Origin: Eledone cirrhosa
Taxonomy: Eukaryota
Length of the DNA stretch: 64,000 bases
Direction: 5' to 3'
Assembly: GCA_964016885.1 (NCBI GenBank)
Contig: OZ024743.1
Location: 350,734,001 to 350,798,000 of the forward strand
Of this stretch, positions 1 to 46,035 are shown in pieces; within the stretch, counting starts at the first letter, position 1; each line of letters opens with the position of its first letter. The position numbers and the translations under genes were made by a program. The notes under the pieces were generated by a model. The model saw nothing but the letters and a program-made list of their open reading frames with translations, had not been told where the DNA came from and did not search any database.

Positions 1-1451
1 CAGTAGACGTCCGCCAAGAGGCCTCCGAACAAGTCTGGCATCTGTACGTAAAGTTCATAGGGCAGACCATCCAAACCAGGCGATTTGCCCCTTGTGCAGC
101 CAGTCATCGCCTCCCTTACTTCAGCGGCTGTTATCGGCTTTTCGCAACACTTCGCCTCAGTGGCCGAGAGCCGCGGCAGTCCGTCGAGGTAGACACTAAA
201 GTCCATCCCTCTACCCGGCCCCCCGCTGCCCCCGAACAGCTGAGCGAAGTGTTGCTGAAAAGCTTCACACATTTGCCCGGGATCGAGTAGCATGCGCCCG
301 TCGTGGTCCACCAAAGACCGGATCGTGGCTTTGTTGCCACGACGCGCCTCCGCCACTCGGGCCCATTGAACGGCTTTCGTCCCCTCGTGTCTGAGAGCAC
401 GCACCCTAGCTCTGACAACGCAGCCTTCGTGCTTTGCATTGAAGAATTGGTCAAGGGCCAATTTCGCCGCAAGCACGTCGGTCGCAATGCCTTTGCTAAG
501 CGCCTCGTCTAATTTTCTAACTAGTTCTCCCTCTGCTCTATTTTTCTCTATTGCTAAAGCCTTACTAAACCTAATCGATTCTATTCTAATCGCTCTTTTC
601 AGAGCAAACCACCACTTGTTGTTGACGATGGCCCCCGTCAACGCCCGCTTAACTAGTTCGCTAATCCGGTCTCTGTAGGCCTTGCGCGCTGGTAAGGACG
701 CGTTTAGCTTCCAGTAGCCGGGTCCTCGTCTATGAAGCCTATCTAAGTCAAGCACACAGATCACAAATTTGTGGTCCGTGTAGCTGACTATCTTGAATTG
801 TGGACAGCCTATGCTAGACCTATCTATTTCCCTACAAAATACTCTATCTAGATATGATCTGGATGACCCTATGCGGTTTGTCCAAGTCCACATTGGCACA
901 TTCGGGAAATCCAATCGGTACCTGTCAGACAGTTCAAAACGCCTGAGCAGGTTGGTGAGGCTCTTGCACCCTCCACCCCTATCCGCTAATCCCACACAGT
1001 CCCAGCGTGCATCTAAGATCCCGTTCCAGTCGCCCACTAACACTAAAGAGCGGGACGTTCCAAGAAAGGTCTCCAGACGCCGGAAGAAATCAGGCCGCCC
1101 TGCTCCTGTCGGGGCATAGACGGCCACTAGCCTGAAAGCTTGCCCGTCTCCGCTGGTCACGTCCAGCACCACCAGCTTACCCTCTGGGTCCAGGAAGATG
1201 GCCCGTATGGCGAGATCCAAACCTCTCCGAAAAAGCACAGCAACTCCTCCACCGGATCCAGGACGGCTGGGAGATGCGTACACATCGAAGCCGCCGAAGA
1301 TCGGTGCGAAGGCCCGTGCTTCGGAGATTCTGGTCTCGCTGATGGCCACTACATCTATGTTTAGTGACCTGAGGTCGTTGAGCAGGTGACCCTGCTTCCA
1401 TGACGACCCCAAGCCACGCGCATTTATGCTGCCTATTCTGAGTGAGGTCAT
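1..1451 (-). CDS. ORF2 of A1, partial (APE endonuclease and linker; runs off window)
   Basis: ATG at 1451. Sequence matches A2 ORF2 offset by 6063 bp (MTSLRIGSINARG...). Confidence 0.9.
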   Translation of the reverse strand, partial: MTSLRIGSINARGLGSSWKQGHLLNDLRSLNIDVVAISETRISEARAFAPIFGGFDVYASPSRPGSGGGVAVLFRRGLDLAIRAIFLDPEGKLVVLDVTSGDGQAFRLVAVYAPTGAGRPDFFRRLETFLGTSRSLVLVGDWNGILDARWDCVGLADRGGGCKSLTNLLRRFELSDRYRLDFPNVPMWTWTNRIGSSRSYLDRVFCREIDRSSIGCPQFKIVSYTDHKFVICVLDLDRLHRRGPGYWKLNASLPARKAYRDRISELVKRALTGAIVNNKWWFALKRAIRIESIRFSKALAIEKNRAEGELVRKLDEALSKGIATDVLAAKLALDQFFNAKHEGCVVRARVRALRHEGTKAVQWARVAEARRGNKATIRSLVDHDGRMLLDPGQMCEAFQQHFAQLFGGSGGPGRGMDFSVYLDGLPRLSATEAKCCEKPITAAEVREAMTGCTRGKSPGLDGLPYELYVQMPDLFGGLLADVY

Positions 1452-1486
1452 GTTTAAAATAGAGTGGAAAAGATGGGAAAGACCAC

Positions 1487-3580
1487 TTACCGTACTTTTG
1501 GTAGAGGAGGGATGGTTTTTACATCCCTTTTCACTTGATCGTCTGGTGAAGGGACCGTTGAATCGTCCCTTCGGCTGGTCGTCGGCTCTTCTAAGAGAAT
1601 GTCTGAGTATACTCTTCGATTGATGGTTCCTCCTAGGTCCCTGAAATCACCAACTGCGTTGGGGAATTTCGTTTTAATATTTGTGTATTGTTTCTGTGCT
1701 ATTTTTAGCAGTCTTATGTTAGTTGGCGTTTTGATTGGTGCTGGTATTATGTAGTCCTGTTGTGAAATGTCTGTGTGTTCAATTATGTAAGTCATTAGTT
1801 TCTTGTTGTGTGTATTTATTGCCGTGCATTTGTTTTTCTGGGGGTGGGGTGTGGTTCTGCTATTTTCTTGTCGTTGTTGCTGGGTGTGTGTGTTTTGTTG
1901 TTGTGTTTGCGATGTTGGTGCTTGTGGTGGTGGTGTTGAAGGTGTTGTTGGCGGTGGGGTTGTCGCCGGTGGTGATGGTGGCGCTAGTGTGGGTGGTGAT
2001 GGTGTTGGTGTTGTTGCTGCTGTGGGTCTCTTTGCAGTAGACTTTACCCTTTTCTCATTTCTTTCCTCACTTTTCAAAGGCGACGATGCGCTGCTTCTGC
2101 GTTTGTGCCTTCTTACGACCTTTTGCCATCTCTCTCCCACCTCACACTCCATGTCTGATTCTGTGAGGTCGGGGAGGGGTACCAACTCCACTCTTTCACT
2201 TGTTGTTGTTGGTGATGTTTGCACTGGAGTCTCTGTTGCAGCTGCATTTGGTATTGCTGTTGTTGTTGTTAGTATTTCCACTGCTGCTGCTGTTTTTGAT
2301 TTCCGTGGAGTGGGTATGGGTGCCACGGGCCTATCGTTCCTGGTTGCCGCTTGTCCTGTTGCTGGTAGCCGTGGAGCCGGATTCGGAAGGAGGGGGGTTT
2401 TCTCCTTTCTCAGGGTCTTCTCGTTGCAGAAGGCCCTGAGGTGAGTCTTCGATCCACAGCGAAAGCATTTCGGGCGTTTGCCCTCAACACTTATGGGCAG
2501 TTGAGTGCCGTTATCGAAGTCTATCACATCCGGGATAGCTTCGATGCACTCCTGGTTGGTTTGGATTAGCATCTCAATGGAGGAGCCGACCCAATCTTCT
2601 CTTACTTTTTTCTGTACTTGCAGTACAGTTGTTTTGTCCTCGATTCCGACGAGGACAGACGCGGCCAGCCAAGAAGGGGTCATTCCGGGGGGGACGTGGG
2701 TCAGTTTGACCCTCACAATTTTTTGCCCACAGTAGGAGGGCACCAACACCATTTCCTCGCTCCTTAGGGTCACTACTGATTGGGCCTTTGCCTCCTGGGG
2801 TGTGGCAAAAAGTACGTCTACGGTGGCATATTTTTTGCCTCGGGTGATGTGCGTTTTCCGCTGCCACACAGACCCCAAGGCTTTTTGTATTTGGGCCTCT
2901 GTGGCTCTTTCCACCCTACGGGATTTTGTACTTACTGTACGGTACGTGACCGTACAGTGCTCTTGGGTTTCGAAAAAATGTTTCGCTGCCTTGCAGATTG
3001 CTCGGTGTCCGTTCTTTGTCACCATCTTCTTCGCTTCCTCTAATTCCTCATTTGTTATGAGGATTGTTTCCAAATTTTTCGCAATACCTGCAAATGAGAT
3101 TGGTTTTTCTCTGCTGTTGTTGTTGTCGTCAGAGCTGCTGGTACTTTTGTTGTTGCTGCAGGTACTACGACTACTGCCTCCGCCGCTGTTGCTGTGGTTG
3201 TTGTTGGTGTTGCTGCTGCTAATGCTGTTGTTGTTTATGCTGCTGGTGATGCTGTTGCGGCTGCTACTGTTGTTTTCATTGTCACTGTTGCTGTTGTTAT
3301 TACGGCTGCTACTGCTATTATTCCTGACGTCAGACGAATGAACTGGGTTTTCGTATTTCCCGCACACCTGTTTCGTCGCTGTCGTCGTCGTGGAGAAACC
3401 TTGCACGCTTTGCACGAGACTTTTCTTTTCTTTCGTCACTTGCGAAAGAGAAGGGAGGGAGAGAGACACATTTAAAGAAGGGAGGGAGAGAGACAATCTT
3501 CTCTCTGCTGTAGTGATGATTGAGGAAGAAGAAGACGGAATGAGTGGGAGTGACGTATGAAATTTCTTTTTCGTAGCCAT
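1487..3580 (-). CDS. ORF1 of A1, gag-like nucleic-acid-binding protein
   Basis: 697 aa. N/S-rich N-terminus, SFAGIA motif, single CX2CX4HX4C knuckle (CFRCGSKTHLRAFC), T/P-rich linker. Confidence 0.92.
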   Translation of the reverse strand: MATKKKFHTSLPLIPSSSSSIITTAERRLSLSLPSLNVSLSLPSLSQVTKEKKSLVQSVQGFSTTTTATKQVCGKYENPVHSSDVRNNSSSSRNNNSNSDNENNSSSRNSITSSINNNSISSSNTNNNHSNSGGGSSRSTCSNNKSTSSSDDNNNSREKPISFAGIAKNLETILITNEELEEAKKMVTKNGHRAICKAAKHFFETQEHCTVTYRTVSTKSRRVERATEAQIQKALGSVWQRKTHITRGKKYATVDVLFATPQEAKAQSVVTLRSEEMVLVPSYCGQKIVRVKLTHVPPGMTPSWLAASVLVGIEDKTTVLQVQKKVREDWVGSSIEMLIQTNQECIEAIPDVIDFDNGTQLPISVEGKRPKCFRCGSKTHLRAFCNEKTLRKEKTPLLPNPAPRLPATGQAATRNDRPVAPIPTPRKSKTAAAVEILTTTTAIPNAAATETPVQTSPTTTSERVELVPLPDLTESDMECEVGERWQKVVRRHKRRSSASSPLKSEERNEKRVKSTAKRPTAATTPTPSPPTLAPPSPPATTPPPTTPSTPPPQAPTSQTQQQNTHTQQQRQENSRTTPHPQKNKCTAINTHNKKLMTYIIEHTDISQQDYIIPAPIKTPTNIRLLKIAQKQYTNIKTKFPNAVGDFRDLGGTINRRVYSDILLEEPTTSRRDDSTVPSPDDQVKRDVKTIPPLPKVR

Positions 3581-3795
3581 GTTGTTTTTTGTTTAAAATG
3601 AAATTTTGGGTACAAAACCCCAATAACTGGTTATTTAACCCCGAAGGGCCAAATAACGGACAGAAAGACCCCTCTCACGAGGAGGAGGGTGTCTTTATCA
3701 ACAATTTGGTTCAAGTTTTAAACAATTTACAATTGTTTTAACGGTTAAAAATTACTATACCTTACAGAGCCGAGCCTCCGTCAACCATGGCATTC

Positions 3796-3831
<36 letters not shown>
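3796..3831. repeat. (AAT)12 junction tract; (ATT)n tail/target on element strand
   Basis: 36 nt of pure AAT between the A1 5' end and the A2 3' end. Confidence 0.97.
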
Positions 3832-3833
<2 letters not shown>

Positions 3834-3856
3834 TTTCTTTATTAACCACAAGGGTT
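3832..3856 (-). terminator. Poly(A)-signal-containing 3' terminus (repeated in every unit)
   Basis: Element strand reads CCCTTGTGGTT-AATAAA-GAAATC-(ATT)n; family B has CCCTTGTGGCC-AATAAA-TGAAATC. Confidence 0.65.
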
Positions 3857-4094
3857 TACATAAAGTAGACATTAAGGACAGTGCAGGACAATGCAGGACG
3901 GTACAAATGGGCATTTCTGCGTGTAAAAAAAACAAAAATAGAGGATGTAACAAAAATAACAATGAAAATAACAATGAAAAATTCCCCAATAGGGGGGAGA
4001 CTTCGGAGGGACATTTGTGGAGAAAGCCCAGTAAAAAGCCACAATGACCCTGACCACCAAGGCAAGTGCCCTCTCCCAGTTTTCCACCTTTAGT

Positions 4095-7000
4095 TTACAG
4101 ATATATACTCAGAGTCGGCCCATTCACTCGGGCCATTCTTGCTTCTCTCACCCATCTTTCAACAAAATGCTGGGAAGAGAGCACTTCCTTCTCTACTCTG
4201 ATTTTCCTTTTCAAATGAAATTTGAAAAAGTCAATCAGAGCATCACCGAAGAGGTAAGTGCTCGTCTTCAGCCCTTTCAAACGTGTCCACCATACTATCT
4301 CTTTCGCCATGGCCACCAGACAGATAAAAACTGCCTGCCCTTCCCGGCTAAAGGAGGAGGGCGGGGCAATCCTCACGATAGACTCAGATGATAGCTGGAT
4401 CCGTCCTAAACGCGACAGCAGGTGTTCGACATAAACCCACAAGTCAGCAATTTTCGGACACTGGACGAGTGCGTGCAGGACGGTTTCGTCGCCCTGCGCG
4501 CATCTCGGACATGCCCGGCTGACGGCACCTCCATGCCTGTAGAGTTTATCCCGAACTGGCAAGGCTCCTCGGTAGCACTGCCAGGCCAGAGATTTCTGGA
4601 AGTTGTCCATAGGCCCTGGCCCGAAAGTTCTTCCGAAGAGATTGGCTAGTTGATTTTCGTCGACGCCTAGAGTTTCCCCAAGTACGTCGTCGCTCTTCCC
4701 CTCCACTAATCCTCTATAGAACGCCGAGGTGGAGTTTCCACCGATCACATTGCCCGATTGGTCGAGGGCTGTGAGCGCCTGAAGACATTCCAGTCTCCAG
4801 GCGCTCCCTCTCGGTCTTCGCTTGACCCAGGACTGCAGCTCCGTCAAGGAAACGAGCTGGGGAAAAACGCGTCTAGCAAACGGCGACCACACCTGATCAC
4901 CGTCGAGGAAGAGGTGGAGATGTCGTAGCCTGAGCGCGTGCCTGCGCATCATCAGCCACGGCATGCCCAGCCCTCCACGTAGCGGGTGTTGACAACAGAT
5001 GGACCGCCTGACCATCGGAGCACGTCCCTTCCACAAAAAGCGAAAGAGCAAACGCTCCAGCGCAGTCAGGCGAGGCTTAGGACAAGGTACGACGGTTAGG
5101 CGGTAGCAGATGACAGACGCGATGTACGCGTTAGCCACCTCCGCTCGACCTTTCAGGGATAGCTTCCTCTCCGCCCATTTCTGGGTGAGAGAAGCCACCC
5201 TGCTCGTCACCTCGTCCCAGTTTTTGTCCGTCTGGAGGTCCGGACCGAACCAGACCCCTAGCAATTTAACCGGTCCGTCCGTCCAGCGCCCGACGACGCT
5301 GTTGGACGGCATGGACCTGCCTCTCCAGGTGCCGAGCTGCAGGCCCACTGACTTTTCCTGGTTGATCATTGCTCCTGTCACCGCTTCGTATTCTCTTAGT
5401 GTAGTGCCGATCGCCTCGATGTGTTTGGCGTTCGACACCACTACGGTGACATCGTCCGCATATGCTGACACGGATCTTCCGCATCCTAGTTCGCGCGGGA
5501 CTCCCCTCAACGTCTCCAGTTTGTGCAGTAATGGCTCGAGAGTCAATACGTACAAGAGGGACGAGAGGGGACATCCTTGGCGGACCGAGCGCATGATGTT
5601 GAACGGTTCCGACAGGTGACCGTTCACTCTCACCACAGAGCAGATGTCGCTGTGCATGGCAGCGATCCAGCCTCTGAAGACGGGCCCAAAGCCAGCCGCC
5701 CTCAGGACTGCCGCTAGGTAACGATGGTCGACCCTATCGAAAGCTTTCGACTGATCTAAATTGATCAAGGACCCACCCGTGCCAGGTTCCCTAGCTACCC
5801 TCTCTACGATGTATCGCATGAGGTGGAGGTTGTCGTGGATGGATCTGTCGGGAATGGCGCATGTCTGCGCCTCTCCCACCAGACCACCAACGACAAGCGC
5901 CAACCTCTTTGCTAGCACCTTGGCCAAAATCTTAAACTCTGTGTTTAGCAGAGTTATGGGCCGGAAATTGTCTATGTTATCCCCCTTGTTCGGATCCTTT
6001 CTCAGCAGTGCCACCGCTCCTCGGCTCACAGAACTGGGAATTCTCCCGTTCTGTTGCCAGTTGCAGTAGACGTCCGCCAAGAGGCCTCCGAACAAGTCTG
6101 GCATCTGTACGTAAAGTTCATAGGGCAGACCATCCAAACCAGGCGATTTACCCCTTGTGCAGCCAGTCATTGCCTCCCGTACTTCAGCGGCTGTTATCGG
6201 CTTTTCGCAACACTTCGCCTCAGTGGCCGAGAGCCGCGGCAGTCCGTCGAGGTAGACACTAAAGTCCATCCCTCTACCCGGCCCCCCGCTGCCCCCGAAC
6301 AGCTGAGCGAAGTGTCGCTGAAAAGCTTCACACATTTGCCCGGGATCGAGTAGCATGCGCCCGTCGTGGTCCACCAAAGACCGGATCGTGGCTTTGTTGC
6401 CACGACGCGCCTCCGCCACTCGGGCCCATTGAACGGCTTTCGTCCCCTCGTGTCTGAGAGCACGCACCCTAGCTCTGACAACGCAGCCTTCGTGCTTTGC
6501 ATTGAAGAATTGGTCAAGGGCCAATTTCGCCGCAAGCACGTCGGTCGCAATGCCTTTGCTAAGCGCCTCGTCTAATTTTCTAACTAGTTCTCCCTCTGCT
6601 CTATTTTTCTCTATTGCTAAAGCCTTACTAAACCTAATCGATTCTATTCTAATCGCTCTTTTCAGAGCAAACCACCACTTGTTGTTGACGATGGCCCCCG
6701 TCAACGCCCGCTTAACTAGTTCGCTAATCCGGTCTCTGTAGGCCTTGCGCGCTGGTAAGGACGCGTTTAGCTTCCAGTAGCCGGGTCCTCGTCTATGAAG
6801 CCTATCTAAGTCAAGCACACAGATCACGAATTTGTGGTCCGTGTAGCTGACTATCTTGAATTGTGGACAGCCTATGCTAGACCTATCTATTTCCCTACAA
6901 AATACTCTATCTAGATATGATCTGGATGACCCTATGCGGTTTGTCCAAGTCCACATTGGCACATTCGGGAAATCCAATCGGTACCTGTCAGACAGTTCAA

Positions 7001-7514
7001 AACGCCTGAGCAGGTTGGTGAGGCTCTTGCACCCTCCACCCCTATCCGCTAATCCCACACAGTCCCAGCGTGCATCTAAGATCCCGTTCCAGTCGCCCAC
7101 TAACACTAAAGAGCGGGACGTTCCAAGAAAGGTCTCCAGACGCCGGAAGAAATCAGGCCGCCCTGCTCCTGTCGGGGCATAGACGGCCACTAGCCTGAAA
7201 GCTTGCCCGTCTCCGCTGGTCACGTCCAGCACCACCAGCTTACCCTCTGGGTCCAGGAAGATGGCCCGTATGGCGAGATCCAAACCTCTCCGAAAAAGCA
7301 CAGCAACTCCTCCACCGGATCCAGGACGGCTGGGAGATGCGTACACATCGAAGCCGCCGAAGATCGGTGCGAAGGCCCGTGCTTCGGAGATTCTGGTCTC
7401 GCTGATGGCCACTACATCTATGTTTAGTGACCTGAGGTCGTTGAGCAGGTGACCCTGCTTCCATGACGACCCCAAGCCACGCGCATTTATGCTGCCTATT
7501 CTGAGTGAGGTCAT
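4095..7514 (-). CDS. ORF2 of A2: APE endonuclease, reverse transcriptase and C-terminal zinc finger
   Basis: 1139 aa. EN motifs SINARG, SET, VYAP, GDWN, YLDR, TDH; GPGYWKLN linker; RT motifs KSPGLDG, FRPITLLN, DQSKAFDRVDH, RQGCPLS, YADD; CPRC..ETVLHALVQC finger, as in L1/Tx1 ORF2. Confidence 0.97.
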   Translation of the reverse strand: MTSLRIGSINARGLGSSWKQGHLLNDLRSLNIDVVAISETRISEARAFAPIFGGFDVYASPSRPGSGGGVAVLFRRGLDLAIRAIFLDPEGKLVVLDVTSGDGQAFRLVAVYAPTGAGRPDFFRRLETFLGTSRSLVLVGDWNGILDARWDCVGLADRGGGCKSLTNLLRRFELSDRYRLDFPNVPMWTWTNRIGSSRSYLDRVFCREIDRSSIGCPQFKIVSYTDHKFVICVLDLDRLHRRGPGYWKLNASLPARKAYRDRISELVKRALTGAIVNNKWWFALKRAIRIESIRFSKALAIEKNRAEGELVRKLDEALSKGIATDVLAAKLALDQFFNAKHEGCVVRARVRALRHEGTKAVQWARVAEARRGNKATIRSLVDHDGRMLLDPGQMCEAFQRHFAQLFGGSGGPGRGMDFSVYLDGLPRLSATEAKCCEKPITAAEVREAMTGCTRGKSPGLDGLPYELYVQMPDLFGGLLADVYCNWQQNGRIPSSVSRGAVALLRKDPNKGDNIDNFRPITLLNTEFKILAKVLAKRLALVVGGLVGEAQTCAIPDRSIHDNLHLMRYIVERVAREPGTGGSLINLDQSKAFDRVDHRYLAAVLRAAGFGPVFRGWIAAMHSDICSVVRVNGHLSEPFNIMRSVRQGCPLSSLLYVLTLEPLLHKLETLRGVPRELGCGRSVSAYADDVTVVVSNAKHIEAIGTTLREYEAVTGAMINQEKSVGLQLGTWRGRSMPSNSVVGRWTDGPVKLLGVWFGPDLQTDKNWDEVTSRVASLTQKWAERKLSLKGRAEVANAYIASVICYRLTVVPCPKPRLTALERLLFRFLWKGRAPMVRRSICCQHPLRGGLGMPWLMMRRHALRLRHLHLFLDGDQVWSPFARRVFPQLVSLTELQSWVKRRPRGSAWRLECLQALTALDQSGNVIGGNSTSAFYRGLVEGKSDDVLGETLGVDENQLANLFGRTFGPGPMDNFQKSLAWQCYRGALPVRDKLYRHGGAVSRACPRCAQGDETVLHALVQCPKIADLWVYVEHLLSRLGRIQLSSESIVRIAPPSSFSREGQAVFICLVAMAKEIVWWTRLKGLKTSTYLFGDALIDFFKFHLKRKIRVEKEVLSSQHFVERWVREARMARVNGPTLSIYL

Positions 7515-7549
7515 GTTTAAAATAGAGTGGAAAAGATGGGAAAGACCAC

Positions 7550-9643: not shown

Positions 9644-9858
9644 GTTTTTTTTTTGTTTAAAATAAATATTGGGCACAAAACCCCAATAAGCGGTTATTTA
9701 ACCCCGAAGGGCTAAATAACGGGCAGAAAGACCCCTCTCACGAGGAGGAGGGTGTTTTTGTCTACAAGTTGGTTAAAGTTTTAAACAATTTACAATTGTT
9801 ATAGCGGTCAAAATTTACAATACCTTACAGAGCCGAGCCTCCGTCAACCATAGCATTC

Positions 9859-9900
<42 letters not shown>
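9859..9900. repeat. (AAT)14 junction tract
   Basis: 42 nt of pure AAT. Confidence 0.97.
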
Positions 9901-9902
<2 letters not shown>

Positions 9903-10163
9903 TTTCTTTATTAACCACAAGGGTTTACATAAAGTAGACATTAAGGACAGTGCAGGACAATGCAGGACGGTACAAATGGGCATTTCTGCGTGTAAAAAAA
10001 ACAAAAATAGAGGATGTAACAAAAATAACAATGAAAATAACAATGAAAAATTCCCCAATAGGGGGGAGACTTCGGAGGGACATTTGTGGAGAAAGCCCAG
10101 TAAAAAGCCACAATGACCCTGACCACCAAGGCAAGTGCCCTCTCCCAGTTTTCCACCTTTAGT

Positions 10164-13583: not shown

Positions 13584-13618
13584 GTTTAAAATAGAGTGGA
13601 AAAGATGGGAAAGACCAC

Positions 13619-15928: not shown

Positions 15929-15949
15929 AATAATAATAATAATAATAAT
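15929..15949. repeat. (AAT)7 junction tract
   Basis: 21 nt of pure AAT. Confidence 0.97.
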
Positions 15950-28042: not shown

Positions 28043-28063
28043 AATAATAATAATAATAATAAT
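28043..28063. repeat. (AAT)7 junction tract
   Basis: 21 nt of pure AAT. Confidence 0.97.
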
Positions 28064-31745: not shown

Positions 31746-31780
31746 GTTTAAAATAGAGTGGAAAAGATGGGAAAGACCAC

Positions 31781-33868: not shown

Positions 33869-34083
33869 GTTTTTTTTTTGTTTAAAATAAATATTGGGCA
33901 CAAAACCCCAATAAGCGGTTATTTAACCCCGAAGGGCTAAATAACGGGCAGAAAGACCCCTCTCACGAGGAGGAGGGTGTTTTTGTCTACAAGTTGGTTA
34001 AAGTTTTAAACAATTTACAATTGTTATAGCGGTCAAAATTTACAATACCTTACAGAGCCGAGCCTCCGTCAACCATAGCATTC

Positions 34084-34128
<45 letters not shown>
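34084..34128. repeat. (AAT)15 junction tract
   Basis: 45 nt of pure AAT. Confidence 0.97.
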
Positions 34129-34130
<2 letters not shown>

Positions 34131-34390
34131 TTTCTTTATTAACCACAAGGGTTTACATAAAGTAGACATTAAGGACAGTGCAGGACAATGCAGGACGGTA
34201 CAAATGGGCATTTCTGCGTGTAAAAAAACAAAAACAGAGGATGTAACAAAAATAACAATGAAAATAACAATGAAAAATTCCCCAATAGGGGGGAGACTTC
34301 GGAGGGACATTTGTGGAGAAAGCCCAGTAAAAAGCCACAATGACCCTGACCACCAAGGCAAGTGCCCTCTCCCAGTTTTCCACCTTTAGT

Positions 34391-37810: not shown

Positions 37811-37845
37811 GTTTAAAATAGAGTGGAAAAGATGGGAAAGACCAC

Positions 37846-39939
37846 TTACCGTATTTTTGGTAGAGGAGGGATGGTTTTTACATCCCTTTTCACTTGATCG
37901 TCTGGTGAAGGGACCGTTGAATCGTCCCTTCGGCTGGTCGTCGGCTCTTCTAAGAGAATGTCTGAATATACTCTTCGATTAATGGTTCCTCCTAGGTCCC
38001 TGAAATCACCAACTGCGTTGGGGAATTTCGTTTTAATGTTTGTGTATTGTTTCTGTGCTATTTTTAGCAGTCTTATGTTAGTTGGCGTTTTGATTGGTGC
38101 TGGTATTATGTAGTCCTGTTGTGAAATGTCTGTGTGTTCAATTATGTAAGTCATTAGTTTCTTGTTGTGTGTGTTTATTGCCGTGCATTTGTTTTTCTGG
38201 GGGTGGGGTGTGGTTCTGCTATTTTCTTGTCGTTGTTGCTGGGTGTGTGTGTTTTGTTGTTGTGTTTGCGATGTTGGTGCTTGTGGTGGTGGTGTTGAAG
38301 GTGTTGTTGGCGGTGGGGTTGTCGCCGGTGGTGATGGTGGTGCTGGTGTGGGTGGTGATGGTGTTGGTGGTGTTGCTGCTGTGGGTCTCTTTGCAGTAGA
38401 CTTTACCCTTTTCTCATTTCTTTCCTCCCTTTTCAAAGGCGACGATGCGCTGCTTCTGCGTTTGTGCCTTCTTGAGACCTTTTGCCATCCCTCTCCCACC
38501 TCACACTCCATGTCTGATTCTGTAAGGTCGGGGAGGGGTACCAGCTCCACTCTTTCACTTGTTGTTGTTGGTGATGTTTGCACTGGAGTCTCTGTTGCAG
38601 CTGCATTTGGTATTGCTGTTGTTGTTGTTAATATTTCCACTGCTGCTGCTGTCTTTGATTTCCGTGGAGTGGGTATGGGTGCCACGGACCTATCGTTCCT
38701 GGTTGCCGCTTGTCCTGTTGCTGGTAGCCGTGGAACCGGATTCGGGAGGAGGGGGGTTTTCTCCTTTCTCAGGGTCTTCTCGTTGCAGAAGGCCCTGAGG
38801 TGAGTCTTCGATCCACAGCGAAAGCATTTCGGGCGTTTGCCCTCAACACTTATGGGCAGTTGAGTGCCGTTATCGAAGTCTATCACATCCGGGATAGCTT
38901 CGATGCACTCCTGGTTGGTTTGGATTAGCATCTCAATGGAGGAGCCGACCCAATCTTCTCTTACTTTTTTCTGTACTTGCAGTACAGTTGTTTTGTCCTC
39001 GATTCCGACGAGGACAGACGCGGCCAGCCAAGAAGGGGTCATTCCGGGGGGGACGTGGGTCAGTTTGACCCTCACAATTTTTTGCCCGCAGTAGGAGGGC
39101 ACCAACACCATTTCCTCGCTCCTTAGGGTCACTACTGATTGGGCCTTTGCCTCCTGGGGTGTGGCAAAAAGTACGTCTACGGTGGCGTATTTTTTGCCTC
39201 GGGTGATGTGCGTTTTCCTCTGCCACACAGACCCCAAGGCTTTTTGTATTTGGGCCTCTGTGGCTCTTTCCACCCTACGGGATTTTGTACTTACTGTACG
39301 GTACGTGACCGTACAGTGCTCTTGGGTTTCGAAAAAATTTTTCGCTGCCTTGCAGATTGCTCGGTGTCCGTTCTTTGTCACCATCTTCTTCGCTTCCTCT
39401 AATTCCTCATTTGTTATGAGGATTGTTTCCAGGTTTTTCGCAATACCTGCAAATGAGATTGGTTTTTCTCTGCTGTTGTTGTTGTCGTCAGAGCTGCTGG
39501 TACTTTTGTTGTTGCTGCAGGTACTACGACTACTGCCTCCGCCGCTGTTGCTGTGGTTGTTGTTGGTGTTGCTGCTGCTAATGCTGTTGTTGTTTATGCT
39601 GCTGGTGATGCTGTTGCGGCTGCTACTGTTGTTTTCATTGTCACTGTTGCTGTTGTTATTACGGCTGCTACTGCTATTATTCCTGACGTCAGACGAATGA
39701 ACTGGGTTTTCGTATTTCCCGCACACCTGTTTCGTCGCTGTCGTCGTCGTCGTGGAGAAACCTTGCACGCTTTGCACGAGACTTTTCTTTTCTTTCGTCA
39801 CTTGCGAAAGAGAAGGGAGGGAGAGAGACACATTTAAAGAAGGGAGGGAGAGAGACAATCTTCTCTCTGCTGTAGTGATGATTGAGGAAGAAGACGGAAT
39901 GAGTGGGAGTGACGTATGAAAATTCTTTTTCGTAGCCAT
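37846..39939 (-). CDS. ORF1 of A7
   Basis: ATG at 39939; intact. Confidence 0.9.
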   Translation of the reverse strand: MATKKNFHTSLPLIPSSSSIITTAERRLSLSLPSLNVSLSLPSLSQVTKEKKSLVQSVQGFSTTTTTATKQVCGKYENPVHSSDVRNNSSSSRNNNSNSDNENNSSSRNSITSSINNNSISSSNTNNNHSNSGGGSSRSTCSNNKSTSSSDDNNNSREKPISFAGIAKNLETILITNEELEEAKKMVTKNGHRAICKAAKNFFETQEHCTVTYRTVSTKSRRVERATEAQIQKALGSVWQRKTHITRGKKYATVDVLFATPQEAKAQSVVTLRSEEMVLVPSYCGQKIVRVKLTHVPPGMTPSWLAASVLVGIEDKTTVLQVQKKVREDWVGSSIEMLIQTNQECIEAIPDVIDFDNGTQLPISVEGKRPKCFRCGSKTHLRAFCNEKTLRKEKTPLLPNPVPRLPATGQAATRNDRSVAPIPTPRKSKTAAAVEILTTTTAIPNAAATETPVQTSPTTTSERVELVPLPDLTESDMECEVGEGWQKVSRRHKRRSSASSPLKREERNEKRVKSTAKRPTAATPPTPSPPTPAPPSPPATTPPPTTPSTPPPQAPTSQTQQQNTHTQQQRQENSRTTPHPQKNKCTAINTHNKKLMTYIIEHTDISQQDYIIPAPIKTPTNIRLLKIAQKQYTNIKTKFPNAVGDFRDLGGTINRRVYSDILLEEPTTSRRDDSTVPSPDDQVKRDVKTIPPLPKIR

Positions 39940-40154
39940 GTTTTTTTTTTGTTTAAAATAAATATTGGGCACAAAACCCCAATAAGCGGTTATTTAACCC
40001 CGAAGGGCTAAATAACGGGCAGAAAGACCCCTCTCACGAGGAGGAGGGTGTTTTTGTCTACAAGTTGGTTAAAGTTTTAAACAATTTACAATTGTTATAG
40101 CGGTCAAAATTTACAATACCTTACAGAGCCGAGCCTCCGTCAACCATAGCATTC

Positions 40155-40193
<39 letters not shown>
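40155..40193. repeat. (AAT)13 junction tract between A7 and B
   Basis: 39 nt of pure AAT. Confidence 0.97.
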
Positions 40194-40195
<2 letters not shown>

Positions 40196-40447
40196 TTTCA
40201 TTTATTGGCCACAAGGGCCGACATATAGGGGACAACACAATAGACAGGGACAGTGGGGGTTTACATAGAGATCGAGTAAGTATAAATAACAAAAAAAACA
40301 AAATAACAATAAAAATACAACAATGAAAGTTCCCCAATAAGAGGGATCACCACCCAGGGTTGACTCAAGCACCCCACCAGTCCTGAGCCACCCGACGCTC
40401 CTAGGGCACCCGGGAAGGGCACCCCTCTCCTTCTCGAATTCACCAGC

Positions 40448-43400
40448 CTACAGGCGCATGATCAGAGTAGGCCCACTCACGCGGGCCATTCTCGCCACAT
40501 TCACCCACCTTTCAGTAAATGTACTGGGGGGCAGCACTTCTCTCTCCACCCTCACCTTCCTTTCCAAGTGAAACTTGAAGAAGTTGATGAGGGATTGGCC
40601 GAAGAGAAAAGTGTCTGTCTTCAGTCCTTTCAACCTGGTCCACCATGCAACCTCTTTCGCTACTGCCACCAGGCAGAGGAAAATTGCCTGCCCTTCCTGA
40701 CCAAAAGAAGGCGGCGGGTCAATCTTCACTATGGACTCGGACGATAGCCGGATCCGTCCTACACGCGACAATAGCTGTTCGACATAACCCCACAAGTCAG
40801 CAATGCACGGACACTGGACGAGTGCGTGCAGAACGGTTTCGTCGCTCTGCGCGCATCTCGGGCAGGTTCGTCTGACAGCACTTCCGTGCCTGTAGAGTTT
40901 ATCCCGAACCGGCAGCGCCCCCCGGTAGCACTGCCAAGCGAGGGATTTCTGGAAGTTATCCATCGTCCCCGGCTCGAAAGTCCTCCGGAACATACTGGTC
41001 AGTTCTACTTCGTTGACGCCCAGAGCCTCTCCTAGTACGTCATCGCACTTGCCCTCCACTAATCCTCTATAGAAATCTTGAGTGGAAGTTCCACTGACCG
41101 CATTGCCCACCTTGCAGAGTGCAGTGAGCGCCTGGCAACATTCCAGATGCCAGTCGCCCAGTCTCGGTCTCTTCTTGACCCAGGACTGCAGCTCAGTCAA
41201 AGAGATGAGCTGCGGAAAGGCCCGTCTAACAAACGGCGACCACACCTGTTCACCGTTTAGGCAAAATATCTGGAGATGTCGCAGCCTCAGCGCATGTCTG
41301 CGCATCATTAGCCACGGCATGCCCAGCCCTCCACGAAGAGGGTGCTGGCAGCAGATGGACCGCCTCACCAACGGGACCCGTCCCCTCCACAAAAATTTGA
41401 AAAGGAGCCGTTCCAAATTGGCGAGGCGTGGACGGGGGCAAGGCACGACGGTCAGGCGGTAGTAGATGACGGACGCGATGTACGCGTTCGCCACCTCCGC
41501 CCGCCCTTTCAGTGATAGCTTTCTCTCAGCCCATTTCTGGGTGAGGTTGGCTATCCTGCTCGTCACCTCGTCCCAATTCTTATCCACCTGGAGGTCTGGT
41601 CCGAACCAAACCCCGAGCAACTTTACCGGTCCGTCTGTCCAGCGCCCAACGACGCTGTTGGACGGCATGGACTTGCCTCTCCAGGTGCCGAGCTGCAAGC
41701 CCACCGACTTTTCCGGGTTAAGTTTTGCTCCCGTCAACCTTTCATATTCCTCCAAATGGGTGCGGATCACCTCGATTTCCGAGGTGTCCGACACCATCAC
41801 GGTGATGTCGTCCGCATAAGCGGACGCAGCCTTTCTACGTCCCGGTTCGAGCGGGATGCCCTGCAACAACTCCAGCTTCCGCAGTAGAGGCTCAAGAGTC
41901 AATACGTACAGAAGTGAGGAGAGAGGGCACCCTTGACGGACCGATCGAGAGATCTGAAACGGTTCCGAGAGGTGGCCATTAACTTTGACCACCGAGCGGA
42001 TGCCGCTGTACATTGCAGCGATCCAGCTTCTGAAGACGGGGCCGAAGCCAGCCGCCTCGAGGACAGCCTCCAAGTACCGATGGTCGACCCTATCGAATGC
42101 TTTCGATTGATCTAAATTGATCAGAGCCCCACCGAAGCCAGGTTTGCACCCAACCCTCTCTATGATGTATCGCATGAGGTGGAGGTTGTCGTGTATGGAC
42201 CTGGTCGGGATTGCGCAAGTTTGCGCCTCCCCAACCAAATCTTTGACGACAAGCGCCAACCTTTTCGCTAACACCTTGGCCAAAATCTTAAACTCTGTGT
42301 TGAGCAGGGTTATGGGCCTGAAATTATCTAGTGTGTCCCTCTTGTTCTCGTCTTTCCTTATCAGCGTCACTACGCCACGGCTCACAGAACTGGGAATGCT
42401 CCCGTTCTGCTGCCAGTTGCAGTAGAGCGCTTCGAGGAGATCGGAGAACAAGTCTGGCATATTTACGTAAAGCTCGTAGGGCAGACCATCCAAACCGGGT
42501 GACTTGCGACTCGAGCAGCCGACAAGGGCGTCCTGAATTTCGGCTGATGTTATCGGCTCTTCGCAGCGCTCAGCGTCGGCCGTCGAGAGGCGTGGCAAGC
42601 CGTCGAGGTAGGGACTGAAGTCCGCCGCCGTCTCCGACTCACCCATCCTCCCGAACAATCGAGCAAAGTGCTGGCGAAAGGCCTCACACATCCGCTTGGA
42701 ATCGCTCAGTTCGTGTCCATCTCGATCCGTCAAAGACCGAATTGTGGTTTTATTTCCACGCTGCGTCTCTGCAAAGCGAGCCCATCGGGCAGCTTTGGTT
42801 CCCTCGTTCCTCAGAGCACGCGCCTTAGCTCTGACAATGCAACCTTCGTGTTTCGCATTGAAGAAATGGTCTAGTGCCATTCTCGCCGCTAGCACGTCTG
42901 TTGCAATGCCACTACAAATAGCCTCGTCTAACTTAGCTATCAGCCCCTCCTCCTTTCTATTTTTCTCTATTGCTACTTCTTTGCTAAATCCTATCGAGGT
43001 TGCTCTAATCTCTCTTTTGAGTGCCCCCCACCACCTGTTGTTGACAACCCCCCCTGTCAACTTTTGCTTAACTAAGTTGTTGACCCGGTCCCTGTAAGCT
43101 TTACGTGCCGGAAACGACATGTTTAGCTTCCAGTAGCTCGGTCCTAACCTACGTGTCTTATCTAGGTCGACCATACAGATCACAAGCTTGTGATCTGAAT
43201 AGGCAACCGTTTTAAAATGTGGACATCCTACACTATTTCTATCTCTTTTCCTAATGAAAATCCTATCTATGTACGATCTAGATGACCCTATGCGATTGGT
43301 CCAGGTCCATACTGGCGCATTAGGGAAATCTAGTCGGTACCTGTCAGACAGTTGAAACTGGCTGATCAGGTACTTGAGGCTTTTGCACCCCCCGCTCCTA

Positions 43401-43867
43401 TCAGATACTCCCACACAATCCCAGCGTGCTTCTAAGATGCCATTCCAATCCCCTATTAACAGTAAAGGGCGAGACGTAAGCAGAAAGTTTTCCAGGCGCC
43501 TAAAGAAGTCCGGCCGACCGGCCCCAGTAGGGGCGTAGACGGCCACCAGTCTAAAGGCACCACCTTCGCTATTGCTCACGTCCAGGACCACCAACTTTCC
43601 GTCAGGATCCCGGAAGATTGACCTTACCTCGAGATCCAGACATTTCCTAAACAGCACAGCCACTCCACCTCCCATTCCCGGCCGACTAACAGATGCAAAG
43701 ATCTGATAATCGTCGAAAATCGGCGCCAGTGCGCGTGTGTCGGAAATTCTGGTCTCGCTGATGGCAATTACATCCATTCCTAGTGACCTGAGGTCGTTGA
43801 GCAAGTGACCTTGCTTCCAGGGCGACCCCAGGCCACGAACATTTAAACTTCCTACTCTTATGGCCAT
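40448..43867 (-). CDS. ORF2 of family B (EN-RT-zf)
   Basis: 1139 aa, collinear with A ORF2 with many substitutions; catalytic motifs GDWN, SDH and YADD present. Confidence 0.97.
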   Translation of the reverse strand: MAIRVGSLNVRGLGSPWKQGHLLNDLRSLGMDVIAISETRISDTRALAPIFDDYQIFASVSRPGMGGGVAVLFRKCLDLEVRSIFRDPDGKLVVLDVSNSEGGAFRLVAVYAPTGAGRPDFFRRLENFLLTSRPLLLIGDWNGILEARWDCVGVSDRSGGCKSLKYLISQFQLSDRYRLDFPNAPVWTWTNRIGSSRSYIDRIFIRKRDRNSVGCPHFKTVAYSDHKLVICMVDLDKTRRLGPSYWKLNMSFPARKAYRDRVNNLVKQKLTGGVVNNRWWGALKREIRATSIGFSKEVAIEKNRKEEGLIAKLDEAICSGIATDVLAARMALDHFFNAKHEGCIVRAKARALRNEGTKAARWARFAETQRGNKTTIRSLTDRDGHELSDSKRMCEAFRQHFARLFGRMGESETAADFSPYLDGLPRLSTADAERCEEPITSAEIQDALVGCSSRKSPGLDGLPYELYVNMPDLFSDLLEALYCNWQQNGSIPSSVSRGVVTLIRKDENKRDTLDNFRPITLLNTEFKILAKVLAKRLALVVKDLVGEAQTCAIPTRSIHDNLHLMRYIIERVGCKPGFGGALINLDQSKAFDRVDHRYLEAVLEAAGFGPVFRSWIAAMYSGIRSVVKVNGHLSEPFQISRSVRQGCPLSSLLYVLTLEPLLRKLELLQGIPLEPGRRKAASAYADDITVMVSDTSEIEVIRTHLEEYERLTGAKLNPEKSVGLQLGTWRGKSMPSNSVVGRWTDGPVKLLGVWFGPDLQVDKNWDEVTSRIANLTQKWAERKLSLKGRAEVANAYIASVIYYRLTVVPCPRPRLANLERLLFKFLWRGRVPLVRRSICCQHPLRGGLGMPWLMMRRHALRLRHLQIFCLNGEQVWSPFVRRAFPQLISLTELQSWVKKRPRLGDWHLECCQALTALCKVGNAVSGTSTQDFYRGLVEGKCDDVLGEALGVNEVELTSMFRRTFEPGTMDNFQKSLAWQCYRGALPVRDKLYRHGSAVRRTCPRCAQSDETVLHALVQCPCIADLWGYVEQLLSRVGRIRLSSESIVKIDPPPSFGQEGQAIFLCLVAVAKEVAWWTRLKGLKTDTFLFGQSLINFFKFHLERKVRVEREVLPPSTFTERWVNVARMARVSGPTLIMRL

Positions 43868-43896
43868 GCTGGCAGGATGAATGGGAGAGGAAAGGT

Positions 43897-45807
43897 TTAC
43901 TTACCTTCCGGGGTCTTGTGAAGGTCGGGTGGTTCGACCTCCATGGTTTGTGGGGTTTCTTTTGGGAACCCCTTTAATAGTCTTGACGTGGGTTTTACGT
44001 TCGGGGTTCCCACATCCCGAGGAAAGCTCTTTCGAATTTCTTTGTATGAAGCGAGCGACATTCGCATCAGAAGCAAATTATCTGGTACGCGAAATGTGCT
44101 CGCTTCAAATGTTTCCCCGTCTTTTTCGATGTTTGTGCTTCGTGCTACATGGGCCATCAATTCCTTGTTGGCCCTTCTGGCAAGCACGAAGTTTTTAATG
44201 TTTTGTTGCTCGGGTTTTATTTGTTCGTGTGATTGTGGTGGTGATAGCTTTGTTAGTGTTGTTTCTATTGTGTCTGCGTTTGTTGTGGGTGGGGTGTCTG
44301 TAGTTTCTGATGTTTGTGTGTCTATTTGTTCTTGTGTCTGTTTAGCTTGTTTGCGTTTGGGGGATTTTGGTGGTTGTGTTGGTGATGCTGTGGGGAAAAT
44401 GTTTGTGTGGGTGGTGTGTGTGTTTTTTTTTGTGGGGGTGTTTGTGCTTTGTGGATTTCTTTTTTTTTTGTGTTTTGTTTTTTGTATTTTGGGGGACTTT
44501 GGTTTTCCCTCATCTTCACTGCTGGAGGATGAGGGGTCTGTGGCTGTGAGCGTGTTTGTGTCTGAGTGAGTGTTTATGTTCTTGTTCGTGTGTGTATTTT
44601 GGGGGGGAGGGGGAATGGGAGAGCTTTCCTCGTTTCCCCCCTGGGTGTGCAATTTTGGTGGTTCCATTGTTGACGGTGTTGCTGGTGGTCCTTGTCCCGG
44701 CGTCGCCAGCAGTGGAATCTTTCGACCCCTTGCGCTTTTCGGCAGTTGAGGGCAGAAGGCTCGCAAGTGTGTCGTTTCCCCACAAAGGAAACAATGCGGC
44801 CTTTTGCCCTCAGTCATTATATGCAACACCCTCCCGTTTTGGAGGCGGATGTGGTCCGGGATTGTTTTTACGTTTTCGGGTCTGATTTGGAGCAGTATCT
44901 CCAGATCAACCCCGGACCAGTCGTCCCTGGCAGTTCTCGTTGCCTCTACCGGGACTGTATCCGTTCCTTCCACGATTACGCAACCCAGGAGCCACCACAT
45001 ATCAAGTCCTGGTGGAATCCTGGGAATGCGCACACGTGCTATTCGTTTTCCCATGTGGGAGGGGTACATTATGACCTTGCTGGTTTTGCAAGGGGTCATT
45101 GAATGCTTCACAGCGAGGGCTTCAGACTTGAACAGCACCGAAACGGTGCCGTATTGCCTGCCCCTCTCTATGAACTCTGTGTCCTCTCTGATGTATTTCA
45201 GTGCGGCTTCTATGTCAGCTTGGGCGATTATCGCTGCCCTCTTTGTCTCTACTGAGATGCATCTGAAATGCACCGTTCTTTTTTCCACTGCCTCAATGGC
45301 TTCTGCCGGGACAGTTAAGTTTGCCCAGGTCTGCTCTTGATTTATGATTTTCCAGGCCTGGGCCAACTTTTCCTCTCTGTTGGTTAAGTCGATGCTGTAG
45401 CATGGTCTCCTTTTAGCCGCTGCCACAGCAGCGAAAGTGTTCTTGTTGGTGTTGTCACTGTTGTTGTTCTTGTTGGTGTTGCTGCTGCTATTGCTGTTGT
45501 TGTTCTCCCCTGTGTCGTGGTTACCTTCTGTGCTGTTGGCCTTGTTGGTGCTGCTGCTGTCGCTACTATTACTCTCTGTGCTGTTCGTTTTGTTGGTGCT
45601 CTCGCTATTACCACCTTCTGCGCTGTTCGGCTTGTTGGTGTTGGTGTTGTCGCCGTTACCACCTTCCGCGCCGCTCGGCCCGTTGGTGCTGGCACTGTCG
45701 CTGCTCACATTCGTGCTGGTGGCGCTCCTCGTCTCACCTCTCCTCTCAACGCTCAAGTCGCCGTTGCACGACAGCAGACCCGCCTCTAGGGGGCGTGGCT
45801 CCGCCAT
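43897..45807 (-). CDS. ORF1 of family B
   Basis: 636 aa. N/S/T-rich N-terminus, TFAAVAA motif, knuckle CFLCGETTHLRAFC. Confidence 0.92.
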   Translation of the reverse strand: MAEPRPLEAGLLSCNGDLSVERRGETRSATSTNVSSDSASTNGPSGAEGGNGDNTNTNKPNSAEGGNSESTNKTNSTESNSSDSSSTNKANSTEGNHDTGENNNSNSSSNTNKNNNSDNTNKNTFAAVAAAKRRPCYSIDLTNREEKLAQAWKIINQEQTWANLTVPAEAIEAVEKRTVHFRCISVETKRAAIIAQADIEAALKYIREDTEFIERGRQYGTVSVLFKSEALAVKHSMTPCKTSKVIMYPSHMGKRIARVRIPRIPPGLDMWWLLGCVIVEGTDTVPVEATRTARDDWSGVDLEILLQIRPENVKTIPDHIRLQNGRVLHIMTEGKRPHCFLCGETTHLRAFCPQLPKSARGRKIPLLATPGQGPPATPSTMEPPKLHTQGGNEESSPIPPPPQNTHTNKNINTHSDTNTLTATDPSSSSSEDEGKPKSPKIQKTKHKKKRNPQSTNTPTKKNTHTTHTNIFPTASPTQPPKSPKRKQAKQTQEQIDTQTSETTDTPPTTNADTIETTLTKLSPPQSHEQIKPEQQNIKNFVLARRANKELMAHVARSTNIEKDGETFEASTFRVPDNLLLMRMSLASYKEIRKSFPRDVGTPNVKPTSRLLKGFPKETPQTMEVEPPDLHKTPEGK

Positions 45808-46017
45808 GTTTTTTTGAGAAAAAAATTATTATTTTTTTCAAAATAAAGTTCAAATATTTGGGCCAAAAGGCCCAAATATTATGAGTTATTCCTTCACAGG
45901 ATACAAATTAATGTCTTATAATGCTTCAGCGGTACAAAAAATAAACAATTCTCTACAATTAATCCTCAAAAAATTGCTTACTCACGGAGCTTCAAAAAAC
46001 GTACATCCACTTTCGTC

Positions 46018-46035
46018 AATAATAATAATAATAAT
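46018..46035. repeat. (AAT)6 flanking the 5' end of family B
   Basis: 18 nt of AAT followed by (AT)n and non-element sequence. Confidence 0.9.

Follow-up and report, generated by a model that had tools for sequence, protein, structure and literature searches.

Tandem stacks of LINEs, probably of the Tx1 clade, joined by (ATT)n tracts in the genome of Eledone cirrhosa

Introduction

Some LINEs of the Tx1 type insert into simple repeats: Kibi, Koshi, and certain crocodilian families are described as specific for TC, TTC, and TTCC/TTTC microsatellites (PMC4494074, PMC3812793). Targeting of TAA repeats is also already known, in the unrelated Dong/R4 elements; Dong (R4 clade) is listed as TAA-repeat specific in PMC3812793, and Dong-R4 as recently active in Octopus vulgaris in Table 1 of PMC13282606. 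Tandem LINEs are on record from Drosophila, where, by the account in PMC5932611, the dimer left by a double insertion expands by unequal exchange. For human L1, an SDSA-like process in which the cDNA copies DNA close to it has been described (10.1101/2024.08.27.596794). A search of published papers found no ATT-specific Tx1 element; the tree in PMC4494074 may include a family specific for ATT/TAA.

The window analyzed here is a 64,000-nt stretch of the E. cirrhosa genome (contig OZ024743.1, positions 350,734,001 to 350,798,000). It holds part of an array of 11 co-oriented LINEs from three families and one SINE, ~66 kb in all, with (ATT)n as the sole joint (Table 1).

The array and its elements

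Every unit in the window has minus-strand orientation; in element sense the tracts therefore read (ATT)n. Six family-A units (6,020–6,031 bp) are complete, the window edge truncates another, and family B is represented by one unit (5,824 bp). An initial annotation had described at least eight co-oriented elements of two families, with pure (ATT)n at each junction and at the outer flank and no host DNA in between. All eight tracts lie where it placed them, with the lengths it gave, the units adjoin them directly, and the common orientation holds, but the families number three, and there is a SINE. Some 20.4 kb of the array lies beyond the left window edge, in the order: end of A1 (complete 2.23 kb left of the window), (ATT)10, A0, (ATT)19, A', (ATT)7, family C, (ATT)13, SINE (172 bp), (ATT)6, host DNA. 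A0 has one ORF2 frameshift; A' is older and broken (93.6% to A7); the family-C unit, also broken, combines an A-like ORF2 with a different 5' UTR and ORF1.

Table 1. Features of the array. Positions are within the window unless a contig is named; all tracts are given in element sense.
Feature	Position	Strand	Remarks
Whole array	~350,713,600-350,780,017 of contig OZ024743.1		extends beyond window
B	40194..46017	-	intact LINE; first unit in element sense
B ORF1	43897-45807	-	636 aa
B ORF2	40448-43867	-	1,139 aa; APE endonuclease, RT, zf-RVT
A7	34129..40154	-	family A, intact; array-private 5' end
A7 ORF1	37846-39939	-	
A7 ORF2	34391-37810	-	1,139 aa
A6	28064..34083	-	family A, intact; array-private 5' end
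A5	22012..28042	-	family A, intact; ordinary young 5' end
A4	15950..21975	-	family A, intact; array-private 5' end
A3	9901..15928	-	family A, intact; ordinary young 5' end
A2	3832..9858	-	family A, intact; array-private 5' end
A1	1..3795	-	family A, intact; 5' part only in window; ordinary young 5' end
(ATT)6	46018..46035	-	outer 5' flank; upstream part of original target
(ATT)13	40155..40193	-	B-A7 junction
(ATT)15	34084..34128	-	A7-A6 junction
(ATT)7	28043..28063	-	A6-A5 junction
(ATT)12	21976..22011	-	A5-A4 junction
(ATT)7	15929..15949	-	A4-A3 junction
(ATT)14	9859..9900	-	A3-A2 junction
(ATT)12	3796..3831	-	A2-A1 junction
Old-head/young-body signature, A7	39875..39927	-	5 exact genome copies, all in array
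Old-head/young-body signature, A6	33804-33856	-	
Old-head/young-body signature, A4	21696-21748	-	
Old-head/young-body signature, A2	9579-9631	-	signature also in A0

Two array types were considered and rejected. The locus is not a telomeric retrotransposon array, since its place on the 378.8-Mb contig is at 350.7 Mb, flanked left and right by host DNA; nor does it resemble a transposon-derived satellite of the R1-array type, having 11 mosaic units from three families and tracts of 7–19 units.

ORF1 of family A encodes 695–699 aa; ORF2 is 1,139 aa long in A1–A7 and in B, the A and B proteins being 75% identical. Pfam identifies Exo_endo_phos, RVT_1, and zf-RVT in ORF2 of both families, with the APE domain N-terminal and a zinc-binding motif C-terminal. 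A CX2CX4HX4C motif is found in ORF1 of both, for which a Pfam search gave nothing above cut-off; its language-model neighbors, at 0.88–0.93, are CCHC and ZCCHC3-RBD proteins, a lead only. ORF2 is intact in 30 of 49 full-length copies examined, and the variants shared among such copies are 32 synonymous versus 12 non-synonymous. No RNA run was among the public runs listed with the element.

The elements likely belong to the Tx1 clade. Their best named relative of known clade is Xenopus Tx1L (YTX2_XENLA, 327–345 bits); human L1 ORF2p scores lower against family-A ORF2 (181 bits). In an RT tree of 54 rows, hand-picked from the hits and lacking an L1 outgroup as well as Kibi, Koshi, Keno, Dewa, and Mutsu, A and B group with P0006 and Argonauta P0007 (support 100/100), with 13 unnamed proteins as sister (100/100), while the larger group that includes Tx1L has support of only 84/66. 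The Tx1 identity first proposed is likely, though the tree does not place the elements firmly. Membership in Dong/R4 was rejected, as the window elements carry an N-terminal APE, and the (TC)n/(TTC)n pyrimidine target of the Kibi/Koshi group was not found, the target here being (ATT)n. A metagenome scan yielded distant relatives only (most best segments 21–33% identical), with uninformative flanks; there are also relatives that are 50% identical.

(ATT)n as insertion site

Genome-wide, (ATT)3 stands directly before 2,445 of 2,536 family-A 5' ends. In 77 kb of host DNA from the flanks it precedes only ~1e-4 of positions, a background that excludes a chance origin. Likewise, 30/30 sampled family-B heads and 8/8 full-length family-C heads are preceded by ATT; the 5' ends of A, B, and C are unrelated to each other, yet all begin right after it, and the flanking tracts range from 3 to 30 units. 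Under the convention given in PMC4494074, a non-LTR element with more than 20% of its flanks of one type counts as target-specific, a share far below that of family A. The initial annotation had proposed that this lineage targets (ATT)n and that each insertion leaves a new target; the flanks of all three families support the former, and targets do remain on both sides of the insertions.

It had further suggested that the tail is the target. The tracts are indeed target DNA. Several copies, however, have at most one ATT at their end before a different sequence begins, or run straight into a copy of the upstream flank, and the tract is therefore a split, partly duplicated target rather than an RNA-coded tail. 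At the other extreme, ATT could be part of the element, carried on its RNA at both ends, with insertion itself unspecific. ATT at the 5' junction is commoner in full-length copies (96%) than in truncated ones, and its phase is constant; the RNA may accordingly bear some ATT homology at its 5' end. Among 16 clear 5'-truncated copies, the junction has (ATT)2 or longer in only seven, another trinucleotide tract in four, (CTT)n accounting for two of the 16, and little or nothing in five. As a full account, an element-coded ATT is scarcely credible given the three unrelated heads, the variable tract lengths, the copies with 0–1 ATT at their 3' end, and the fact that 13/30 family-A 3' ends lie in tracts that terminate opposite-strand RLE-type LINEs.

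The 3' ends were located by pattern search, a DNA search with the family-A 3' end having given no match; exact WC(ATT)3 follows only 5,330 of 9,671 A/C-type 3' motifs. Tracts at 5' ends are shorter than those at 3' ends (median 8 vs. 14, p = 0.008; 41 rows, with L050 counted three times), but among solitary copies the difference is not significant (p = 0.16; 22 rows), so that the case for an edge-biased nick is drawn mainly from SINE sites and interrupted tracts. The array-type SINE is present in more than 154,000 copies, inserting at ATTAT sites, and had no match in Rfam and tRNA searches; the LINE machinery may drive it. In this genome, window-type elements also occupy tracts in common with RLE-type LINEs that end in (AAT)n.

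Growth of the stacks

The array had been seen as a single locus grown into a macrosatellite of more than 46 kb. Its actual length is greater, but it is not alone, as there are many small stacks: 612 junctions of an A-type 3' end to an A 5' end occur genome-wide. By the run lengths on another contig, C1, a run of eight A-to-A junctions is expected only ~2e-4 times per genome.

Within the array, A0, A2, A4, A6, and A7 share a chimeric 5' end that occurs five times in 3 Gb, always here. Going downstream, each of these units has a 5' block in common with the next of the five, the first differences falling at 241, 355, 722, 2157, and 2157. A7 has no substitutions relative to A6 over the first 2,156 bases, nor A4 relative to A2 over 1–721, nor A2 relative to A0 over 1–354; over 722–2300, A4 is 0–1 substitutions from copies outside the array. 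A6 and A4 differ by two substitutions and one indel; among other young copies, 276 pairs have at least 9 substitutions, with a median of 53.5. A1, A3, and A5, on the other hand, match copies outside the array (2–3 substitutions over the first 2.3 kb of A5, 6–7 over 2.3 kb of A3), and are therefore read as ordinary independent insertions. A2 equals the upstream A3 from 2,744 onward except at one site, and A5 has a private allele in common with A4/A6, both of which fit crossover or conversion. At the level of single sites, alleles private to the array did not exceed the null significantly (2 vs. a null median of 1); the haplotype-level pattern of 5' ends is decisive instead.

Could repeated independent insertion, each unit entering the tract of the previous one, be the sole source of the array, as initially suggested? 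The origin of A1, A3, and A5, the mixture of three families and a SINE, and the number of tandem junctions genome-wide all agree with it. Among 19 adjacent pairs on contig C1 (consecutive junctions among the first 100 places listed, not a random genome sample), 12 likewise have no top-ranked head sharing; in the other seven, the neighbor has the longest identical 5' prefix compared with 76–77 other copies, as against 2/400 random draws (p ~4e-12). Unless the private head is common in other individuals, it contradicts independent insertion for five units, and with the run length, the head sharing on C1, and the closeness of A4 to A6 this makes such insertion highly improbable as a general explanation.

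False duplication during assembly, for example of 12-kb alleles (A6-7-A5 and A4-7-A3) set in tandem, or mis-joined reads, might be suspected where units are at least 99% identical over 66 kb, and short contigs from four public runs did not span the junction, the flank itself being repetitive. But A3 and A5 are separated by 13 differences and, over their first 400 bases, match different outside copies, tract lengths and single-unit variants differ among units, some junctions elsewhere repeat a non-repeat piece of flank and so require reads spanning them, and thousands of 6-kb copies were assembled with distinct flanks. An artefact is accordingly quite improbable.

Head-sharing neighbors on contig C1 often have a duplicated upstream flank and a body from elsewhere. 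L301, the first in its stack, has no substitutions relative to L302 over 1–3,035; beyond that it is three substitutions from outside copies, while L302 is at least 56 from any, and at their junction a 17-bp non-repeat segment from the flank upstream appears again. In L138-L137-L136 one interrupted 39-nt tract occurs three times, with heads common to 588 and 1,287 and bodies of different young haplotypes; interrupted tracts are also repeated in L291-L157-L292 and L304-L119. A family-B stack of at least six units has (ATT)5 in every tract; its first unit equals the second over 1–1,150, then has five variants missing from four other whole units, and two adjacent units are identical. The downstream unit may be the newer in L295-L296 and L302-L303, so the direction of growth is not uniform.

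These patterns are best accommodated, at a probability of about 0.6, by ordinary insertion into junction tracts together with cDNAs that complete their 5' ends on a resident neighbor. The APE endonuclease would nick the (AAT)n strand, often at the 5' edge of the tract (C^ATTATT in sense), an edge that the element's own 3' end would recreate, and a short target duplication would leave tracts on both sides. A targeted insertion would thereby seed a stack, A1, A3, and A5 being of this ordinary kind. If a cDNA forms immediately upstream of a homologous resident, the second strand could come to be primed on that resident instead of on the short overhang of the target, or the cDNA could switch onto the resident. 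The duplicated target would then become the tract plus 0.2–3 kb of the resident's head, in effect a kilobase-scale target-site duplication, and the private front end of the five units likely came from incoming copies borrowing a neighbor's 5' end in this way. The cDNA intermediate is deduced from sequence patterns of one assembly. Unequal crossover also adds units, as seen at one other locus, and may account for A4/A6.

Crossover could conceivably do more: targeted double insertion might form dimers, with all later growth and mosaicism due to unequal crossover and gene conversion and no special role for the cDNA intermediate, a model presented as established for R1, hobo, and P tandems in PMC5932611. 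L158 equals the downstream L294 over 1–4,350 and, starting at 3,710, the upstream L293, and each of the two tracts has 10 units; this trio, L293-L158-L294, is a clean unequal-crossover product. DNA-level recombination therefore takes place, and together with gene conversion it could imitate some head-sharing cases. The near-identity of A4 and A6, each followed by (ATT)7, and the identical B units on C1 point the same way. But L301, L138, L291, and the first B unit on C1 stand first in their stacks, without an upstream donor, and yet combine the neighbor's head with another body, one that for L301 and L138 lies near young outside copies; each would need a duplication and then multi-kilobase ectopic conversion to the 3' end. 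Crossover and conversion by themselves are thus an unlikely, though serious, explanation.

If cDNAs are indeed completed on residents, stacks might more generally be sites of repair and recombination, where truncated cDNAs regain a promoter and ORF1 and subfamilies swap heads; completion would be routine because targeting puts each new cDNA beside a homologue. This extension is tentative, and somewhat less probable than not. If true, it would account for the stacks, the mosaicism of young copies, family C with its different head on an A-type ORF2, and the large number of full-length copies, and stacks could rebuild and reshuffle full-length elements.

Discussion

With these elements, (ATT)n joins the targets of APE-type site-specific LINEs; the lineage is young and has many intact copies. 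As intact APE LINEs specific for a microsatellite, they are candidates for studies of targeted insertion, and the stacks offer a natural, countable record of LINE 5'-end joining and of promoter/ORF1 exchange, both open questions. That a highly abundant SINE and two LINE types unrelated to each other share one microsatellite, on opposite strands, is relevant to octopus genome expansion.

Xenopus Tx1L has an ORF2 just 29–30% identical to those of the window elements and inserts into a DNA transposon rather than (ATT)n; the predicted endonuclease hairpin of the window elements is of L1 length, two residues shorter than in Tx1L. Kibi, Koshi, and crocodilian Tx1 are, as here, APE-RT LINEs of Tx1 type in a microsatellite; judged by the published descriptions, the present elements differ in target, in their octopod host, in having thousands of full-length copies, and in commonly forming head-to-tail stacks. 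Dong targets the same repeat class; the neighboring RLE-type LINEs have a C-terminal restriction-like nuclease motif in place of the N-terminal APE, and lie in opposite strand orientation. L1 chimeras with resident L1s were reportedly obtained in cultured cells by Gilbert et al. in 2005. In human L1 templated insertions, cDNA copies or pairs with DNA beside the insertion site and duplicates it, as proposed here, but these are described as rare and typically <250 bp, against 0.2–3 kb in 7/19 tandem pairs; head capture would be routine here because targeting sets homologues side by side. The R1 array and the tandems that double insertion produces in Drosophila retain the target at their junctions, likewise here; in E. 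cirrhosa, by contrast, the stacks are many, small, and of mixed families, and many units, instead of being copies, join a neighbor's head to a body from outside.

Structure and identity of the array

The eight (AAT)n tracts described in the initial annotation, with their lengths and the minus-strand ORFs, were all borne out when the window was re-checked, and with the 80 kb to its left also read, the array in full is ~66 kb. It is real. In element sense, with bare figures for the number of ATT repeats between units, its order is host, (ATT)6, B, 13, A7, 15, A6, 7, A5, 12, A4, 7, A3, 14, A2, 12, A1, 10, A0, 19, A', 7, C, 13, SINE, 6, host, where A, B, and C are LINE families and A0-A7 and A' are family-A units. 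Both ORFs are intact in B and A1-A7; A0 carries a single frameshift, both A' and C are broken, and the oldest-looking units sit at the 3' end.

Coordinates of features in the window and elsewhere (unit counts of the two family-B stacks are lower bounds, their far ends lying outside the stretch read)
Feature	Location	Strand	Loci	Remarks
Terminal SINE of the array	G000:C4 ~350,713,600-350,713,771		L032/L033	
Older truncated relatives	window 47140-48659	+		74-81% to A or B; opposite orientation; end on short ATT runs only
228-residue open stretch	window 62159-62843	+		resembles the restriction-like nuclease region at the C-terminus of a different LINE type
186-aa ORF	window 61955-62515	-		probably a shadow of the 228-residue open stretch
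Family-B stack, at least 6 units	C1:423.39-423.42 Mb		L179-L181	(ATT)5 in every tract; two units identical
Family-B stack, at least 5 units	C10:44.68-44.71 Mb		L182-L184	tracts 6, 6, 8, 8
Small tandem of truncated copies	C1:45,777,201-45,778,022			three 3' ends, spacing exactly 395 bp

The ORF2 domains are APE endonuclease, RT, and zf-RVT. A CCHC knuckle is present in ORF1, and ZCCHC3-type RNA-binding proteins are among those that look similar to it. The bit score of ORF2 is 327-345 with Xenopus Tx1L as the comparison and 181 with human L1, and the top named match is from Argonauta hians (73% over the RT region). In the RT tree, A, B, P0006, and Argonauta P0007 form a firm group of four; the group holding Tx1L is supported at 84/66 only, in a tree without an L1 outgroup. 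On these comparisons the elements are called Tx1-like. A well-supported sister group consists of ENA/JGI proteins (P0008-P0066, ~50% identity), some clusters having hundreds of members. Family-B 5' sequence, with few differences and at low depth, was also found in runs X4 and X5, labelled as two other organisms, and in X6, which is a second sample under the best-matching label.

(ATT)n as the target

The genome is 3.0 Gb and rich in microsatellites; together with the Argonauta match, this suggests an octopod host. That the lineage targets (ATT)n was predicted initially, and the flanks of genomic 5' ends (heads) agree: ATTATTATT directly precedes 2,445 of 2,536 exact A heads genome-wide, against a background of ~1e-4 of host positions. 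ATT lies just upstream of 30/30 sampled heads in both families (at least three units in 29 of each, pure in A) and of 8/8 full-length C heads. The preference is looser in truncated copies: among the 16 whose 5' junction can be read, seven have an ATT run, four another trinucleotide tract, and five little or none. Seven rows (L087, L088, L272, L275, L279, L282, L284) were left out of this set because the junction is an internal deletion, later insertion, or family chimera. At the 3' end, a single ATT precedes other sequence in copies L063, L068, and L079, whose tract ends there, and L138 and L301 run straight onto a copy of their own upstream flank; the 3' tract is therefore target DNA. We put the probability of target specificity for (ATT)n at about 0.95.

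At 13 of 30 A 3' ends the tract is common to a tail-to-tail LINE with an RT, a CCHC finger, and a restriction-like nuclease motif. Such RLE-type LINEs, sharing (AAT)n/(ATT)n tracts on the opposite strand (L059-L085 3' flanks), comprise two families, read as Dong/R4-like by motif and by published descriptions (PMC3812793, PMC13282606) rather than by a tree. In the L047 and L151 3' flanks, more unrelated 5' ends begin after ATT, again with G; these are possibly further families of the lineage.

The 3' motif of the terminal SINE has 154,003 exact occurrences in the genome. The SINE is ~185 bp long (L032/L033 and L241-L270), and by eye its last 25 bases are similar to LINE 3' ends. Among the first 30 copies listed, ATT comes next in 28, and 20 have 11-21-bp duplications starting at ATT, 14 of them after a C. 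Its usual site is a short ATTAT, unlike that of young LINEs. It is a candidate partner of the LINEs.

Stacking across the genome

Stacking is general in the genome. An A/C-type 3' end, a short gap, and then an A head were found in 612 cases, or 24% of 2,536, whereas such tails make up at most ~8% of V(ATT)5 tracts (5,330 vs. 67,123 counted), a rough comparison, the thresholds of the two counts being unlike. The first 100 junctions listed on contig C1 include 77 singles, 10 pairs, and one triple; given this distribution, a geometric model expects a run of eight ~2e-4 times per genome. Other family-B stacks are included in the table. Junctions number 359 on the plus strand and 253 on the minus (p=2e-5 if independent), an excess that may reflect at least one far longer stack in another part of the assembly.

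Growth of the array

Growth of one locus by insertion into its own tracts, as first suggested, accounts for only part of the array. Over 2.3 kb, A1, A3, and A5 differ from outside copies by 2-8 substitutions, and we interpret them as ordinary insertions. A0, A2, A4, A6, and A7 have young bodies joined to the head of A', the old resident unit; this combination has five occurrences genome-wide, every one in this array. A4 and A6 differ by two substitutions; the lowest of 276 pairs among 24 other young copies is nine. A single-site test, simpler than the head-body signature, did not exceed its null. That local copying took place here is very probable.

Some of this copying could have come about if cDNA completed its 5' end on a neighbouring resident copy (head capture). 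The new cDNA would pair with the adjoining homologue, and the duplicated target would thereby reach into the neighbour's head. L1 chimeras with resident L1s were reportedly seen in cultured cells by Gilbert in 2005. The A0 switch zone is patchy (young-type at 241, an A'-type deletion near 260, young-type at 276), which would fit heteroduplex repair, although the deletion could be independent slippage.

Consecutive junctions and heads in the C1 listing yielded 19 adjacent A pairs. In seven of them the identical 5' prefix shared with the neighbour is longer than that shared with each of 76-77 other copies; random draws gave such a top-ranked prefix in 2/400. It was again top-ranked in four extra first-in-stack (most upstream) pairs, a biased sample picked because their neighbours had already scored positive. 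One trio is a clean product of unequal crossover: L158 is equal to its downstream neighbour over positions up to 4,350, and from 3,710 on it equals the upstream one. Three other cases are not of this kind. L301, with host DNA upstream, is identical to old L302 as far as 3,035, is beyond that three substitutions from outside young copies, and then has a copy of its non-repeat flank; L138-L137-L136 repeat the same interrupted tract, with a staircase of common heads on differing young bodies, and L291-L157-L292 show the same pattern. As counterpoints to head capture, direction is not clear at L295-L296 and L302-L303, and several window alleles fit conversion. On balance, head capture by cDNA is somewhat favored as a main route of growth.

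Comparison with known systems

A literature search, with Repbase and most subscription journals outside its scope, found no description of an ATT-specific Tx1 or of such cephalopod stacks. Comparisons draw on PMC3812793, PMC4494074, PMC8967140, PMC4640811, PMC5932611, PMC11702581, 10.1101/2024.08.27.596794, PMC4824008, and PMC13282606. The array probably grew by a known route together with an under-recognised one; what is new is the target and the host, for an already known kind of element.
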